Shown: one piece after another, positions 4,336 to 61,234 of the stretch
How the letters are laid out: each line of letters opens with the position of its first letter
Position numbering within the stretch: position 1 is the first letter of the stretch
Assembly: GCA_963727585.1 (NCBI GenBank)
Contig: CAVSHH010000003.1
Span: 738,493 to 802,492, forward strand
DNA length: 64,000 bases
Source: an uncultured Chloroflexia bacterium
GTDB lineage: Bacteria; Chloroflexota; Limnocylindria; Limnocylindrales; CSP1-4
Direction: 5' to 3'
Position numbers and translations under genes: made by a program
Notes under the pieces: model-generated
The model's database searches: none
What the model was told of the DNA's origin: nothing
The model's input: the letters and a program-made list of their open reading frames with translations, nothing else

Positions 4336-7300
4336 GTGACCCTGACCCACACCTCCGCGCCCGCCGCCCGGAGCGCGCTGACGCCCGCGCAGTGCGCCAT
4401 CGTCGAGGCGCCCGACGGGCCGGTCGTCGTCATCGCGGGTGCCGGCACGGGCAAGACGCGGGTCATCGTGGAGCGGGTGTGCTGGCTGCTCGAGACCAAG
4501 GGCGAGCGGACCGTGGCCGGGAGCCCGATCCCCGCGGAGCCCACGCCACGGCACGGCAGACCGTTCGACGGCCCGCTCGTCCCGGAGCAGCTCCTCGTCC
4601 TGACCTACAACGTCAAGGCGGCGGCGGAGCTCGGCCAGCGCATGGACGAGGCGGTGGGGCCGGCCGTCCGGGCCCGGATGACCGTGAGCAACTTCCACAG
4701 CTTCTGCCAGCGGATCCTGACCGAGAATGCCGCCGAGGCCGGCCTGCCCAGCCGCCCCGACGTCCTCGACGGCGTGGGCCAGGTGCTCCTGCTGCGCGAG
4801 GTCGTGCCCGGCCTCGACCTCCGCTACCACGGCAGCTCGCCGTGGTCGCTCGGCGGCATGGTGGGCTTCATCAACCGGGCCAAGGACGAGCTGGTCAGCC
4901 CCGACGGCTTCGACGCCTTCGTGGCCAACGAGCGGGCCATCTACGAGCGCGACTTCGGCGGCTTCGACGCGGCCGTCGAGCGCCTGGACCGGACCGCCCA
5001 CCTGGGGCCGGTGCGAGCCGTCCGGAGCGACTACGCGAGGGTTCGCGCGAACCAGCGGGCCGAGGATGCCGGCCTCCCGGTTCGCTCCTACCGGGACGAT
5101 GAGCACGAGCGGACCGCGGAGCGCGAGGCCCGGCGCAACGTCATCGGCACCGGCGGCCTCGTCGGCCGCAACCGGCTGGACGCCGACCAGCTCGACGCCA
5201 TCGACGCGCTGGCCGACACCTACGTCCGCGACGGTGCCGCCCTCGAGGTGCTGCGCCTCGGCGAGATCGGCCGCGTCTACCGCGCCTACCAGGAGACGAT
5301 CGCCACCCGGGGCCTGCTCGACTTCGGCGAGCAGATCGCCCTGGTCACGCGCCTGTTCAAGACCCGGCCCAACGTCCTGCGGCGCTGGCAGCGCCAGTTC
5401 CGCTACCTGCTGGTGGACGAGTTCCAGGATGCCAACGTCGCCCAGATCGAGCTGATCGAGCTGCTGGGCCGCACGCCGGACCGCCCCGACAACGTGATGG
5501 TCGTGGGTGACGACGACCAGTCGATCTATCGCTTCCGGGGCGCCAGCTATGCCGCGTTCGCCGAGTTCGACGCCCGCTTCGCCCGGCCGCCCGCGCACGA
5601 CCCCGGCGCCATCCCGCCCGGCCCGCCGCCCCGGCTCCACATCGAGCAGAACTTCCGCAGCGTCCGCTTCGTGCTCGACGCCGCGAACCGCCTCATCGGG
5701 AACAACGAGACCCGCTTCGCGCCGGACAAGACGCTGCGCACCGACCGGGCGGCAGGCGACCCCATCGAGCTGCTGGTGTGCGGCGGCGCCGAGGACGAGG
5801 CCGTTGCCATCGTCGATGCCGTCCGCGCCTTCCACGACGCCGGCCGGGCCTGGAACGACGTGGCCATCCTGTACCGCAAGCACAAGCACCGCGACGCCAT
5901 CGTGGACCGCCTGCGGGCCGAGGACATCCCGTTCACCATCGTGGGTGGCCTGTCGCTGTTCGAGACCCCCGAGATCCGCGACCTCGAGCAGGCCCTGCGG
6001 GCCATCGCCGATCCCGAGAACGACCCGGCCCTGGTCCGGATGATGACCGCCGGCCCGTGGCGCCTCGACGCGCTGGAGATCCTGCGCGTCAGCCGCGACG
6101 CCCGGTTCGACCGGAGCCACCTGCTCACCGCCGTCCACCGGATGGTCGAGCGCGGCGAGGCCGCCGAGGCCGTGGCCAGCCGGGACGAGCAGCAGCGCAT
6201 GGCCCCCGTCGATCCCGCGCTGCGGGCCAAGCTCCGCAGCCTGCTCGCGGCCATCGACGAGCTCAACCCGCGGACCTGGCGTGACGGCCCGCACACCATC
6301 CTCGAGCGCTATCTCGAGCTCACCGGGACCGTGCTGGACCTGCTCGCGACCGGGACCCTGGAGGCCAAGCGGGCCGTGGTGGCGATCGCGAGCTTCCTGC
6401 GCTTCACCGCGGACTGGCAGGCGGCCCACCCGGCCGGCACCCTGGCCGGCTTCATCGACTACATCGAGGCGTACAAGGACGCCGGCGGCGAGCTGCCCAC
6501 CAGCGTGGAGCTGTCCGAGGACGTCGAGGGCGTGCGCCTGATGACCCTCTACCAGGCCAAGGGCCTCGAGTTCCCGGTCGTCGTGGTGCCGGACCTGCTC
6601 GAGGGCGAGTGGCCGGTGAAGGAGCAGGGGAGCGGCTGGTTCCCGCGCGAGCTGCTGCGCGAGCAGGTGCCGGACGGCAACCTCCATCTCGACGAGGAGC
6701 GACGGCTGCTGTACGTGGCGATCACCCGCGCCCAGGAGCGGCTGGTGCTGAGCACGCACGGCGGCACTGGGGCGAAGGCCCAGAGCGTGTTCGTGGCCGA
6801 GCTGCTCGACGGGTGCGGGCCGGAGCTGACGGTCATCGACCGCACCCTGGCGGAGGGGGCGGGGGAGGCGGCCGACGGGGACGGCCACGGCACGGGCGAT
6901 GGCGCGACCCCGGGCGACGCGAGCGACGGCACCGCCGACGCGCTGGCGGCCGCCCGCCGGGTCCTGCCGCTGCCCTCGTCGCGCGAGCGCCGGCTGGCGC
7001 TGCGCCTGCGGGCGTCGGAGCTGGTGGGCCTGGTGGAGGCGACCGCCGCCGACGACCCCGAGGCGCGCGAAGCCCGGGCCGCGTTCGAGCGGCAGCTGGC
7101 CGAGGTCGGCCGGGCGGCGGCCATGAGCGCCGACGAGGCACGCGCCGCCGGTCTCGACCCGCTGACCTTCCGGACGGTCGCCCTCGACACCGTCGCCGGC
7201 GCGAGCCTGCTCGCCGTGGCTCCCGTGCCCGACCACTTCTCGTACTCGTCGCTGTCCACGTACGAGGCGTGTCCGCTGCGCTACGCGCTCGCCTACGTCT

Positions 7301-55769: not shown

Positions 55770-56723
55770 CTATCGTTCCGGGAGGGGGCCCACCACCGTC
55801 ACCCACGGGTGCACGAGCTGCTCGAACAGCTCCTCCGGGATCGCCGACCGGTAGCGCATGGCGGCCCACGCGTTCCACAGCGCCACCAGGCCATGCTGGC
55901 CGGGCTCGCCGGCGCGGTCCATGACCGACGCGGCCTCGTTGGCGACCGGATCCGCGCGTGGCAGCAGCGACCCGAACAGGGAGCCCATCAGGCCCGGCGA
56001 CGATGCCTGGGGTTCGGCCCGCAGGTCGTGGCCGGCGAGCACTCCGCAGACCGTGACCTGGAGCTCCGTGAAGGCGTGGAACGTCGCCTCGAAGCCCGAT
56101 CCGGGCACGTGGACGCCGCCGGTCCAGGTGACCCCGAATCCGCGCGCGAGGTCCTTCGACCCGCCACGGGCGATCATGTCGCCGACGACGCGGCCGATGG
56201 TCAGGATCTCGTCCCGCGTCAACCGGCCTGCCCAGCCGAACATCGCGTCCGGGTCCAGCGTGATGTCGCCGGCAGCCACCATGGCCGCCGAGCGCGCCAG
56301 GAGCATCGAGCGGACGGGAACGGCGTCGCCGGCGGCCCCGTCCCCCACGGGCTCGCCGGCGGTCTTGTCCCCCGCGGGCGGGACAGGGGAGCGGGCGGCG
56401 TCGATCGTGGCCGTTTCGGTTTCCCCCGCCGGCTCAGGGTTGTCGAGAGCCTCGAGCAGCCGCCGGGCCCGGTCCGGGTGCTCGAGGCCCAGCCGCAGGC
56501 CGACCGCCAGCGTGGCCCGGTCGACGGTGGCCCGCTCGATCGCCCCCGGGTCGATCCCGGCCACGGCCAGCGCGGCGGACAGCGCCTCGTCGTCGTGCAG
56601 CCCGGCCTCGCCGCCCGGCCGATCGCCGGGGGCCGGCCCGTCCTGGTTCAACATGGCCTGACGATACTCCGCCGGCGAGCCGGGCGAACCTGCGCCCGGC
56701 CCCAGGCGGTCGTGCAACATCAC
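55770..56723 (-). CDS. Hypothetical protein
   Basis: 317-aa ORF with coding-like composition, divergent from dnaG. Confidence 0.4.
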   Translation of the reverse strand: MMLHDRLGPGAGSPGSPAEYRQAMLNQDGPAPGDRPGGEAGLHDDEALSAALAVAGIDPGAIERATVDRATLAVGLRLGLEHPDRARRLLEALDNPEPAGETETATIDAARSPVPPAGDKTAGEPVGDGAAGDAVPVRSMLLARSAAMVAAGDITLDPDAMFGWAGRLTRDEILTIGRVVGDMIARGGSKDLARGFGVTWTGGVHVPGSGFEATFHAFTELQVTVCGVLAGHDLRAEPQASSPGLMGSLFGSLLPRADPVANEAASVMDRAGEPGQHGLVALWNAWAAMRYRSAIPEELFEQLVHPWVTVVGPLPER

Positions 56724-56751
56724 GGGTCACGACGATTTGCGTGGTCGTCCA

Positions 56752-56832
56752 GGGGCTTGACACGGGCGTCTTGTCAAGCCCCCTGACCGGGGGTACCCTC
56801 GGCCGCGGCGAGGCCTGTCAAGACTTGACAGG
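56752..56832. promoter_or_regulatory. Two palindromes sharing a CTTGACA/TGTCAAG core in the divergent promoter region upstream of dnaG
   Basis: GGGGCTTGACA-n9-TGTCAAGCCCC (56752-56782) and CCTGTCAAG-ac-CTTGACAGG (56814-56832). Confidence 0.6.
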
Positions 56833-56884
56833 TCCGCAGTCATTTCCGCCGGAGCGCGTGTCCTGAACCGGGGAGGAGCTGCGG

Positions 56885-58807
56885 TTGGCCGTCGGCGTCG
56901 TCGCCGAGATCAAGGGCCGTCTGCCCGTCGCCGACGTGGTGGGCGAGGTGGTCCAGCTGAAGAAGGCGGGCACCACCCTCAAGGGGCTGTGCCCGTTCCA
57001 CGGCGAGAAGACCCCGTCGTTCGTGGTGACGCCGGCGCGCGACACCTGGCACTGCTTCGGCTGCGGCAAGCACGGCGACATCTTCACGTTCGTGATGGAG
57101 CGGGACTCGGTCGGCTTCCCCGAGGCGCTCAAGCAGCTGGCCGCACGGGCGGGCGTCGAGCTCGACGAGCGGACCAAGGCCGAGGACGCGCGCAACGCCC
57201 GACTGCGCACGGTGCTCGAGGCGGCGATCGCCTTCTACCACGCGGTGCTCACCAGGTCCAGGACGGGCGAGGCGGCGCTGGCGTATCTCCGCGACCGCGG
57301 GTTCACCGACGAGACCATCGAGAAGCACCAGCTGGGGTGGGCGCCTGGCGGCTGGGACACGCTGGTCCGCCAGCTGGCCACGAAGCGCCAGATCAACCCA
57401 CCCGAGCTGCTCGACGTCGGCCTGGCGAGCCCTCGCCAGCGCGGCGGTGGGGTCTACGACCGGTTCCGGGAGCGGGTGATCTTCCCGATCCGCGACGCCA
57501 ACGGGCACCCGGTCGGCCTGGGCGGGCGGATCCTGGGCAAGGAGGGCTCGGCGCCGGACGGGAGCGACCGCGGGCCGAAGTACCTCAATTCGCCGGCGAC
57601 CCCGCTGTTCGACAAGAGCCGCACGCTGTACCTCATCGATCGCGCCAAGACCTCGATCCGCAAGACCGGGCAGGCGGTGATCGTCGAGGGGTACACGGAC
57701 GCCCTGATGGCGCACCAGGCGGGCTTCGAGAACGTGATCGCGAGCCTGGGCACGGCGCTGACCCCCGGACAGGTGGCGCTCATCACCCGCTACGGCAAGC
57801 GGATCGCGCTCGCCTACGACGTCGACGCGGCCGGCGAGAAGGCAGGCACCTTCGGGGCCACCGCGCTCGAGGAGCTCATCCGGCAGCTGGCCGCCGACTC
57901 CTCGGGCGTCGAGCTCGACGACGTGCGGGTCGTCCGCCTGCCCGAGGGCAGGGACCCCGACGAGGTCCTCCGCGACGACCCCGACCGGTGGCGCGAGGAG
58001 GTCCGGACGGCACGACCTATCGTCGACCACCTGGTCGATGTCCACGCCCGGGCGAACGACCTCAAGGCGGCCGGCGGCAAGGCCCGCTTCGCGGAAGCGG
58101 CCCTGGACGTGGTCCGCAGTCTGCCGCCGCTGATGCGCGACCCGTATCTCCAGCAGATCGCCCAGCTCTCGGGCATCGGGCCGGGCGCGCTGATGGTGGC
58201 CCTCCGGGAGGGGAGTGGCAAGCGCTCGGACACCCGGTTCACCGCGAGCGCCGTGGTGGCCGCGGCGGACGCGCTCCCGGTCAACGACATCCTGCGCGGC
58301 GTCTCCCGCACGGAGCAGGAGCTGCTGCGCCTGGTCCTGCTCGTGCCCGAGGCGCACGACGAGCTGCTCGACGGCGTGGGGCCGGACCGGATGGCCAGCC
58401 AGGTCGCGCGCGAGCTGTTCCGGGCGGTGGCCGTGGCCCGCGCCCGCGACGACCACGGGGTCCGCCCGCCGTTCGCCCTGGCCGCAATCCTCGAGGGCCT
58501 CGACGAGGAGAGCCGGGCGCTGGGACAGGCGCTGGTGTCCCGGCCAGGACCCGATTCCCGCGGCCACTCCGACCGGTCGCTGGCCTACGAGATCCAGCGC
58601 CTCGTGCTCGAGCTCGACGACGCGGACTGGGACGAGAAGAGCGGCTACAACCGGGACGCCCTCGGCGAGGCCGAGCGCGACGGTGACGCGCCCGCCGTCG
58701 AGCGACTGATGCTCGAGCGTCGGCTGCTCAACGAGCAGCGCCGGTCCCTCGACCGCCGCCGTGACCAGACCCGCCTCCTCAACCGCACCGCCGCCGCAGC
58801 GAGGTGA
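56885..58807 (+). CDS. dnaG: DNA primase
   Basis: Zn-ribbon [11 protein letters not shown]...CFGCG, TOPRIM ([10 protein letters not shown]), DnaB-binding C-terminal domain. Non-ATG (TTG) start. Confidence 0.9.
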
Positions 58808-58874: not shown

Positions 58875-60635
<1,761 letters not shown>

Positions 60636-60648
60636 GAGGAGACAGTTC

Positions 60649-61029
60649 ATGAAGTTCGTCGTCGGGTTCCTGGGGGGCATGATCGTGGGTGCCGTGGGTG
60701 CCGTCGCATACTCGGTCCAGACTGGGCGCGACCTGCGCGAGGAGTTCGAGGGAGTCCGCTCGGATCTGGCCCGGCGCGACCTTGATGCGCTGGGCTCACG
60801 CCTCGAGTCGCGCGTCACGGAGATGCAGGCGCAGTTCGAGACCCGCATGAACCAGGTCCGTGAGCGGGCCGGCGCAGCGGTCGATGAGGCACGGTCGGGC
60901 GGGACCGATGAGGCCGGGGTCGCCGAGGCCGCGGAAGGGGCGGTGACCGCCGCCGCCGATGCCGCCGAGGCGGCCAGCGAGGCCGTCGCCGAACAGGCCG
61001 AGGCGGCGAAGGAGCAGGCGGAGGGCTAG
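60649..61029 (+). CDS. YtxH-like membrane-anchored coiled-coil protein
   Basis: MKFVVGFLGGMIVGAVGAVAYSVQTGRDLREEF, then a Glu/Ala-rich helix. Confidence 0.5.
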   Translation: MKFVVGFLGGMIVGAVGAVAYSVQTGRDLREEFEGVRSDLARRDLDALGSRLESRVTEMQAQFETRMNQVRERAGAAVDEARSGGTDEAGVAEAAEGAVTAAADAAEAASEAVAEQAEAAKEQAEG

Positions 61030-61234
61030 ACCCCGCACTCGGAGTATCCCGCCACGCCGCCGGCTCGCTCGAGCCGGCGGCGTTGTCATGTCCGCGGAGG
61101 GATGGCCTCGACGGGTGGCGACACTGGTCGCCCCGGCGTGTGGTGCGGCTTCCTTCCAACCAAGCGGAACCACGAGCGCGAACCATCCCGGCCAGGCCGG
61201 TGATCCGGCGGTGCCACGGTGGCAGGCACGGGTG

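Follow-up and report, generated by a model that had tools for sequence, protein, structure and literature searches.

A class-wide conserved stem-loop with a -35-like core heads the dnaG-rpoD operon of Limnocylindria

Introduction

In Escherichia coli, dnaG and rpoD are co-transcribed as part of the rpsU-dnaG-rpoD macromolecular-synthesis operon, and regulatory signals cluster at the head of that operon. We analysed a 64-kb stretch of DNA of 72% G+C, here called the window, from an uncultured Chloroflexia bacterium of the class Limnocylindria (GenBank contig CAVSHH010000003.1, positions 738,493 to 802,492), in which dnaG and rpoD likewise lie together below a cluster of putative signals. The two arrangements also differ. 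The window has no rpsU upstream, no counterpart of the internal heat-shock promoter or nut-like site of the E. coli operon was found in the window operon, and the E. coli operon has, to our knowledge, no hairpin like the one that stands between the promoter and dnaG here. That hairpin, hereafter the leader element, is the subject of this study.

Stem-loops at the 5' terminus stabilise bacterial mRNAs (Emory, Bouvet and Belasco 1992, as cited in PMC3997798), and the decapping enzyme RppH needs at least 2 unpaired 5' nucleotides (PMC3997798). The level of the housekeeping sigma factor, and how it is coupled to that of the replication primase, is poorly understood beyond a few model organisms, and control of sigma level is unexplored in Limnocylindria, an abundant uncultured class of soil and freshwater. 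In the searchable literature we found nothing on the sequence of the leader element, on regulation in Limnocylindria, or on leaders or autoregulation of primary sigma genes. Our best reading is that the element, previously undescribed and deeply conserved, is a new cis-regulatory 5' leader RNA.

Results

A stem-loop conserved across the class

The leader element is a class-wide, single-copy, strand-specific stem-loop with RNA-type covariation, set at a fixed distance from conserved promoter boxes at the head of dnaG-rpoD. It is built on a short inverted repeat, IR2, whose centre is the 15-mer TGTCAAGACTTGACA. We compared 80 loci recovered in a search with DnaG (59-89% identity; about 8 kb per locus). 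The titles of 79 name uncultured Chloroflexia or Chloroflexota or Candidatus Limnocylindrales, the exception (L055) being labelled Verrucomicrobiia, and rpoD follows dnaG on the same strand in 79, the remaining contig stopping within dnaG. The 15-mer lies 43-141 nt upstream of dnaG in all 80 loci, exact in 78 and with one substitution in two. This conservation is the decisive evidence that the signal is not due to chance and, judged by sequence comparison, marks the IR2 element as clearly functional.

Metagenomes added further members. A scan for the bare 14 specified bases, with the flanks left free, matched at least 120 contigs, the majority of which are low-GC chance matches or unrelated palindromes. 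With the metagenome members added and oriented by their downstream gene, the set comprised 99 elements and 59 distinct 29-mers, which we aligned on the palindrome centre (window position 56823).

The stem of the hairpin consists of six invariant or near-invariant apical pairs and four basal pairs that co-vary. The 15-nt core, TGTCAAG-W-CTTGACA, is essentially invariant: positions ±3 to ±7 show zero changes, and there is one substitution each at -2 and -1. The centre base on the sense strand is A in 90 of the 99 elements, T in eight and G in one. Positions ±8 to ±11 vary in sequence and nonetheless pair in 324 of 324 cells among the 81 genome-derived elements, and pairing ends abruptly at ±12, where 33 of 81 pair. 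Nine variants of the basal stem occur among the 99 elements (GGCC/GGCC, GGCC/GGTC, GACC/GGTC, GGCT/GGCC, GGCT/AGCC, GGCG/CGCC, GCCT/AGGC, GCCG/CGGC and CATC/GATG). They include two compensatory routes that pass through a sense-strand G.U pair, one from GGCC/GGCC via GGCC/GGTC to GACC/GGTC and the other from GGCC/GGCC via GGCT/GGCC to GGCT/AGCC.

Counted over the 59 distinct sequences, all 590 of 590 cells are paired, and each of the four basal pairs has changed on both sides. None of 500 shuffles matched the stem-loop on any of five measures, and controls in which the partner strand was slid gave 13-45% pairing. The wobble cells reveal which strand is paired. There are 21 G.U cells on the dnaG-sense strand and no A.C, so that strand alone always pairs; one distinct sequence in three would contain mismatches if the RNA came from the other strand or the site were a strict DNA palindrome. 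In RNAfold predictions every leader forms the hairpin, at -13.2 kcal/mol in the window, and RNAalifold on the close clade confirms the hairpin alone, the alignment of the remaining leader being unreliable. The IR2 stem thus has the compensatory pairing on the gene strand expected of a structured cis-regulatory RNA, in related sequences that record few independent events.

The element occurs once per genome locus and follows the sigma gene

We built a covariance model, R1, of the hairpin and the conserved block that follows it, and ran it over 1.3 Mb of sequence. In the window it gave the single match listed in Table 1, with no other below E = 0.1; the minus strand at the same place reached only 24 bits, through its palindromic core. 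All 80 loci have exactly one full match each. One match per locus is expected, since these loci trained the model, and the absence of extra copies is the informative part. Across the roughly 8 kb available per locus (about 0.56 Mb of related flanks), the 15-mer is never repeated. Among the matched metagenome contigs, 18 are full R1 members, at 48-67 bits, and wherever such a contig extends far enough, dnaG, rpoD or both lie downstream; two short contigs (L100, L174) hold the leader architecture only.

The element tracks the sigma gene, as shown by contigs that lack dnaG at this place. In four of them (L113 at 2444-2486, L187 at 2311-2353, L180 and L188), promoter, hairpin and block stand directly before a sigma-70 family gene with no intervening dnaG. 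Pfam confirmed sigma-70 regions 1.2, 2, 3 and 4 in L113 and L187, and L180 and L188 have a tblastn match to RpoD and none to DnaG on the contig. The four products are 52-73% identical to the RpoD of the window.

A collection of 2.9 million viral contigs gave one match, a full leader element at 2154-2196 of IMGVR_UViG_3300009549_000150 (L201), with dnaG (59% identity) and rpoD (83%) downstream. We rejected the idea of a phage-borne copy: the contig, which carries dnaG-rpoD, looks like cellular Chloroflexota DNA or a prophage-flanking region, not phage.

Two further contigs contain the 15-mer in another role. At 2623-2637 of L141 and 2901-2915 of L196, TGTCAAGTCTTGACA forms the back-to-back -35 boxes of two divergent promoters, TTGACA-18-TATGGT toward a gene for a 189-aa J-domain/zinc-finger protein and TTGACA-19-TATGAT the opposite way. 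Its flanks are unpaired there and R1 does not match. The ATG of the J-domain gene stands only 9 nt past the TATGGT box, so its mRNA would be leaderless.

These distributions speak against a regulon operator. The initial annotation of the window had proposed a genome-wide search for CTTGACA...TGTCAAG palindromes. The motif is not enriched elsewhere, whether in the window, in the 0.56 Mb of flanks or among the high-scoring metagenome matches listed, so the idea of an operator shared by a regulon fails. The same palindrome does not recur upstream of several genes: there is one copy in the window and one per locus, and we rejected this candidate after finding no second context in the window (at up to 3 mismatches), in the 80 loci, among the metagenome matches listed, or with R1 over the 1.3 Mb.

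The two inverted repeats of the window

What is unusual about the region is a shared word, CTTGACA, and not its palindromes as such. Two perfect inverted repeats, IR1 and IR2, lie between a minus-strand start and the start of dnaG (Table 1), and open reading frame (ORF) calls bear out this placement, which the initial annotation had given. Both repeats carry TTGACA, as it also stated. Its 11-bp IR1 stands as described; its IR2 is indeed a perfect 9-bp repeat, with a single 'a' as spacer instead of the reported 'ac' (the C had been counted twice), and lies downstream of IR1 by 31 nt, not 32. Short-loop inverted repeats with arms of at least 9 bp number 11 in the window against 12.7 ± 3.2 expected, and such repeats are frequent in DNA of this base composition, so the arm length of IR2 alone is not unusual; repeats with arms of at least 11 bp number three against 0.55 expected. 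By contrast with this background, four of the six CTTGACA copies in the window fall within one 75-bp stretch of this region, as do four of the seven TTGACA copies of the whole 64 kb, with only three elsewhere. TGTCAAGACTTGACA has no second match elsewhere in the window at up to 3 mismatches.

Table 1. Features of the dnaG-rpoD leader region and operon in the window
Feature	Position	Strand	Sequence or basis
Minus-strand ORF	start 56723	-	ORF call; left of the palindrome region
IR1	56752-56782		perfect 11-bp inverted repeat: GGGGCTTGACA (56752-56762), 9 nt, TGTCAAGCCCC (56772-56782)
Distal TTGACA	56757-56762	+	inside the IR1 left arm (56752-56762); about 13-14 bp upstream of the -35 box
P1 -35 box, TTGTCA (predicted)	56771-56776	+	overlaps the IR1 right arm (56772-56782)
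P1 -10 box, TACCCT (predicted)	56794-56799	+	17-nt spacer from TTGTCA
Predicted transcription start	56805-56808	+	from the usual 6-8 nt after the -10 box
R1 covariance-model match	56810-56852	+	63.2 bits, E = 5.6e-12; hairpin plus block
Leader stem-loop	56812-56834	+	GGCCUGUCAAGACUUGACAGGUC; 23 nt, 10-bp stem, GAC loop; contains IR2
IR2	56814-56832		perfect 9-bp inverted repeat: CCTGTCAAG (56814-56822), 'a' (56823), CTTGACAGG (56824-56832)
Conserved block	56835-56848	+	CGCAGTCATTTCCG; directly 3' of the hairpin; consensus C.CAG.CAT.TCCG
Shine-Dalgarno sequence	56872-56878	+	GGAGGAG; read from the sequence
dnaG	56885-58807	+	TTG start 56885-56887; ORF call and sequence; domains by Pfam
rpoD	58875-60635	+	ATG start at 58875, read from the sequence; Pfam

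A predicted promoter lies in fixed phase with the hairpin

IR1 resolves into promoter parts. Its right arm, CTTGTCAAG, reads TTGTCA on one strand and TTGACA on the other, and the TTGTCA forms the -35 box of a predicted sigma-70 type promoter, P1, which has a hexamer, a spacing within 16-18 nt, a TAnnnT box and a gene downstream. P1 (56771-56799) is the sole TTGNCA-N16-18-TAnnnT match in the 64 kb, where 0.19 would be expected. Either most genes of this organism have consensus-distant promoters or the sigma operon has an exceptionally strong one. The architecture holds in relatives: a TAnnnT-type hexamer (TAACCT, TACAGT, TAGAAT, TAGATT and others) precedes the palindrome core by 14-17 nt, mostly 15-16, in the 97 elements scored, and a -35 box lies 16-18 nt, mostly 17, upstream of it, spelled TTGTCA in 62 of the 99 elements and TTGACA in 22.

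The left arm of IR1 holds a second, distal TTGACA. Of 96 distinct related upstream regions, 70 have a perfect TTGACA 62-66 nt before the hairpin centre, and 93 carry two or more perfect hexamers, at two preferred positions. The relative orientation of the two is not constant: they are inverted with N6-10 in 49 regions, and a direct TTGACA-N4-8-TTGWCA arrangement was scored in 71, a count that includes -35 boxes readable both ways. Relatives mostly lack the complementary flanks that extend IR1 to an 11-bp repeat here (0-1 nt in 34 of 49). Variable orientation and spacing, together with the missing flank pairing, indicate that IR1 is conserved neither as a hairpin nor as a dimer site. It combines a -35 box with an additional conserved TTGACA that in this genome happens to be inverted and flanked by complementary G/C runs.

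The proposal that the two palindromes are paired operators for a dimeric regulator finds no support, since IR1 is not conserved as a palindrome, the flanks of IR2 co-vary in the manner of RNA, and the site is single-copy. The second proposal of the initial annotation, overlapping promoter and hairpin elements, fits well: the right arm of IR1 contains the -35 box, and IR2 is a conserved hairpin in the predicted initially transcribed region. Its description of a divergent promoter region refers to the minus-strand gene that starts there; the upstream gene varies among the 80 loci and the left gene of the window is not conserved in relatives, so the divergent arrangement is incidental.

The remaining hexamers are not promoters, because they lack a -10 partner. 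At 16-18 nt from the hairpin hexamers or the distal hexamer we found no -10 box (the sequences there are GCCGGA/CCGGAG rightward, GGGTAC leftward, and CCCCTG for the distal copy), and the hairpin and distal hexamers of relatives likewise have none. A second, antisense or divergent promoter starting from the hairpin hexamers was ruled out on the same ground, there being no correctly spaced -10 box either way.

Several further features accompany the promoter. The P1 spacer contains an inverted repeat, CCCCC-tgacc-GGGGG (56779-56793), and CCCC..GGGG precedes the -10 box in most of the close clade. Upstream of its hairpin, one relative (L199, about 5655-5700) repeats GGTATTGACAAA three times in direct orientation at a 12-nt period, and another (L005, about 2840-2900) has three upstream TTGACA hexamers and has lost the proximal TTGTCA box; hexamer number and placement are evolutionarily fluid. 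In 38 of 95 related upstream regions (L059-L080, L081, L094, L100, L121, L187 and others) a second conserved palindrome, gATACyCC-N3-GGrGTAT, adjoins the distal TTGACA, 5-25 nt upstream of it. It is absent from the window. Its inner stem appears to co-vary (ACTCC/GGAGT, ACCCC/GGGGT). Insulation as a hairpin and binding of a separate factor are two possible roles for it.

A conserved block follows the hairpin

The block directly 3' of the hairpin is conserved without gaps and in register across 83 distinct sequences, with T at +20 in 77 of 83, T at +22 in 78 and G at +25 in 77. In most predicted folds it supplies the 5' strand of a second helix, which varies. Its partner in the window is the GGAGG of the Shine-Dalgarno sequence together with the bases that precede the TTG start; in other clades the partner is nearby sequence, and it differs between clades. 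An anti-Shine-Dalgarno helix is unsupported as a general feature, because the ribosome-binding site (RBS) is no more sequestered than in shuffled leaders and the partner is clade-dependent. In 33 of 79 leaders the RBS is less accessible than the control median, with the window at the 17.5th percentile. As sequestration is no better than in shuffles, we make no claim of translational occlusion.

Two other explanations of the block were set aside. A small leader ORF starting from an ATG or GTG in the block would run into dnaG in another frame without meeting a stop, and in the window an ATT stands at that position. The 9-mer TCATGTCCG within the block (TCAT(G/T)TCCG, 56840-56848) could pair with the codons for ADMI in rpoD, before region 1.2 (59242-59250, minus strand). 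We judged this a coincidence: codon choice fixes the match, no covariation accompanies it, and the 9-mer is frequent in coding DNA. A near copy of the same 9-mer at 61086-61094, after a hairpin at 61054-61083, was likewise judged coincidental.

The hairpin matches no Rfam family and lacks a terminator signature

Rfam 15 at gathering thresholds had no match anywhere in the window, and at E up to 10 the segment 56650-56950 gave five sub-threshold matches, at 12.6-15.9 bits against thresholds of 39-95. A scan of 56000-57500 for intrinsic terminators found none. The leader hairpin is trailed by CGCAGTCATTTCCG and not by a T-run, which rules out a terminator.

The DnaG of the window has the Pfam domains zinc ribbon, DNAG_N, Toprim and DnaB_bind, and its RpoD has Sigma70 regions r1_2, r2, r3 and r4. 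The N-terminus of RpoD (58875-59380) is a long extension before region 1.2, with a Lys/Arg-rich stretch, a GNGNGNGNG repeat and an acidic tract. The minus-strand ORF that starts at 56723 has a coding pattern of G+C by codon position (0.78/0.55/0.92), and no Pfam domain was found in it. Beyond rpoD, about 25 nt after the stop of the next ORF (60457-61029), lies a perfect inverted repeat with G+C-rich 14-bp arms around a 2-nt loop, ACGCCGCCGGCTCG-ct-CGAGCCGGCGGCGT (61054-61083). No T-run follows. It is the longest short-loop hairpin of the window and probably the operon-end terminator.

Discussion

The leader element is best read as an RNA

On balance, we favour the reading that the IR2 element acts at the RNA level, as a cis element of the dnaG-rpoD message, with or without a component at the DNA level; we put this at somewhat better than even. 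The element probably works as a 5' protective or recognition hairpin. From the promoter boxes and the strand-specific pairing, we infer that it forms the 5' end of the transcribed message and acts in cis as RNA. P1 (-35 at 56771-56776, a 17-nt spacer, -10 at 56794-56799) would start the transcript at about 56806. Some 4-6 unpaired nucleotides would follow, then the hairpin (56812-56834) would fold, and the single-stranded block (56835-56848) would come after it. The hairpin would in cis set the survival or processing of the transcript and with it the level of primase and sigma A.

The frozen part of the stem suggests a partner. Apical pairs and loop are fixed on both arms, and the base needs only to be paired; pairing alone cannot account for the former, so the sequence itself is presumably read, and a sequence-specific partner may recognise the apical part of the hairpin. 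Our favoured candidate is sigma A or the RNA polymerase holoenzyme, because the core comprises two copies of the sigma A -35 hexamer and, where dnaG is missing, the element still stands before the sigma gene. By our estimate, a -35 hexamer would occur in a random 7-nt arm with a chance of the order of 0.1%. The -35-like core thus suggests feedback from sigma A or RNA polymerase on its own synthesis. The reader of the core could see either the RNA hairpin or duplex DNA at about +11 to +25.

In its strongest form, the proposal is that the primary sigma factor senses its own abundance through a palindromic mimic of the -35 box, as nascent RNA hairpin or as duplex DNA, and so throttles the production, escape or survival of the dnaG-rpoD message. 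We offer this as speculative and rather doubtful. We know of no autogenous feedback loop of this kind described for a housekeeping sigma factor.

Several observations weigh against an RNA-level role. The start site is placed from the promoter boxes, and a stricter sigma-70 consensus scan did not call P1. The covariation is phylogenetically clustered and amounts to a handful of independent changes, and the shuffles are uncorrected for relatedness. Folded as a single sequence, the whole leader has no unusual stability (z = -0.9), and the RBS of native leaders is unpaired with a mean probability of 0.444, against 0.43 once the leader middle is shuffled (79 leaders). The apical stem is frozen on both arms with no G.U at ±3 to ±7, a pattern more typical of a DNA operator for a dimeric protein than of helical RNA. 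Perfect RNA helices are seldom read for their sequence, and we know of no direct precedent for the helix-turn-helix of sigma region 4 binding A-form RNA.

Alternative explanations

A DNA operator is the alternative that survives best, unlikely as we consider it. A dimeric helix-turn-helix repressor would bind TGTCAAG-N-CTTGACA at about +11 to +25 and block open-complex formation or escape at P1, leaving the RNA hairpin as a by-product. Invariant arms from ±3 to ±7 without G.U, around a centre base free to be A, T or G, make the classic operator pattern, and the site stands in fixed phase to the -10 box, inside the footprint of RNA polymerase. Yet positions ±8 to ±11 co-vary, and their 20 G.T combinations are non-palindromic in DNA and pair only as sense RNA, with no A.C, which would not be expected of a protein operator. 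The centre base is biased by strand (90:8:1), the site is single-copy at one operon, and no regulator gene is conserved next to it, the upstream neighbours differing between loci.

Ranked next, and also improbable, is a passive 5' hairpin that shields the message from 5'-end-dependent RNases without any partner, its invariance coming from an unrelated overlapping constraint. Such protection needs pairing only, and it therefore leaves unexplained why five apical pairs are frozen without G.U across 59 distinct sequences as the basal four change, and why the loop-flanking bases and the 14-nt block on the 3' side are conserved too. Its merits are the fixed short distance of about 4-6 nt from the inferred start and the stability of the hairpin at -13.2 kcal/mol, in keeping with the well-established 5' stem-loop stabilisers.

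Third comes a trap for sigma at the DNA level, to which we assign a low probability. Here the four TTGACA hexamers, two upstream and two in the palindrome, would dock region 4 of sigma A, so that abundant holoenzyme, sitting on the orphan hexamers just past P1, hinders initiation or escape there, giving negative feedback. The idea accommodates the two perfect -35 consensus hexamers of the core, the concentration of four of the seven TTGACA copies of 64 kb at this spot, and the association of the element with the sigma gene even without dnaG. It also gains from the presence of at least two perfect hexamers in 93 of 96 regions regardless of orientation, which suggests a monomeric reader, and from L141 and L196, where the 15-mer is two real back-to-back -35 boxes. 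It has to contend with the lack of a -10-like box at 16-18 nt from either hairpin hexamer in either direction, given that holoenzyme binds a lone -35 box weakly, and it does not explain the covariation of the flanks, the conserved C/G beside the hexamers or the 3' block.

A heat-shock operator of the HspR/HAIR type is very improbable: IR1 (CTTGACA-N9-TGTCAAG) recalls the HAIR repeat bound by HspR (CTTGAGT-N7-ACTCAAG) in the half-site CTTGA only, rpoD is heat-inducible in some bacteria, and the 15-mer stands beside a J-domain gene in L141 and L196, but its half-site departs from HAIR at 2 of 7 positions, its spacing of 9 nt ranges over 6-10 nt in relatives, direct repeats take its place in many lineages, and the J-domain link, rejected as a candidate, is accounted for by two divergent promoters with unpaired flanks. 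Because half-site and spacing differ and the spacing varies, the likeness of IR1 to HAIR is superficial.

Significance

The element offers a sharply defined, class-wide control site that combines a co-varying base of RNA type with a core that spells the DNA recognition sequence of sigma. If sigma A or polymerase does read that core, primary sigma factors would gain their first autogenous sensor, through a new kind of target mimicry; even a mere stabilising or processing hairpin would be a clean new RNA motif. The covariance model R1 can be used to annotate Limnocylindria genomes and serves as a marker of promoter architecture in a lineage without genetics.

Comparison with known systems

Known systems resemble the leader element in different parts. 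The sigma-70 -35 element has the identical hexamer, and the proximal upstream copy lies 17 nt from a TAnnnT box as in a promoter; unlike -35 elements, the hairpin and distal hexamers have no -10 box at 16-18 nt. Operators of the 7-1-7 type, such as the Fur, PerR and Zur boxes (TGATAAT-N-ATTATCA), share the free centre base, the invariant arms and the overlap with the start region. The leader element differs from them in sequence, in the RNA-type covariation of its flanks, in being single-copy and in its strand bias.

In function, its closest analogues are stabilising stem-loops at 5' termini and autogenous leader operators. Stabilising stem-loops, as in the E. coli ompA and papA leaders, match it in placing a stable hairpin a few nucleotides from the 5' end, here a predicted one. 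The base of the stem merely needs to be paired, as in those leaders, and a block of 5'-end-dependent decay would follow. Stabilisers are not sequence-invariant across distant species, however, whereas the element in Limnocylindria has a frozen apical stem and loop plus a conserved block 3' of them.

Autogenous leader operators, among them the ribosomal-protein leaders, thrS and T4 genes 32 and 43, offer a further parallel. They differ in two ways, in that sigma A normally targets double-stranded DNA and that occlusion of the RBS is not demonstrable here. As in those systems, a single-copy, operon-specific hairpin heads the message of its putative binder, and the hairpin copies the normal target of that binder, which here would be the -35 hexamer of sigma A.

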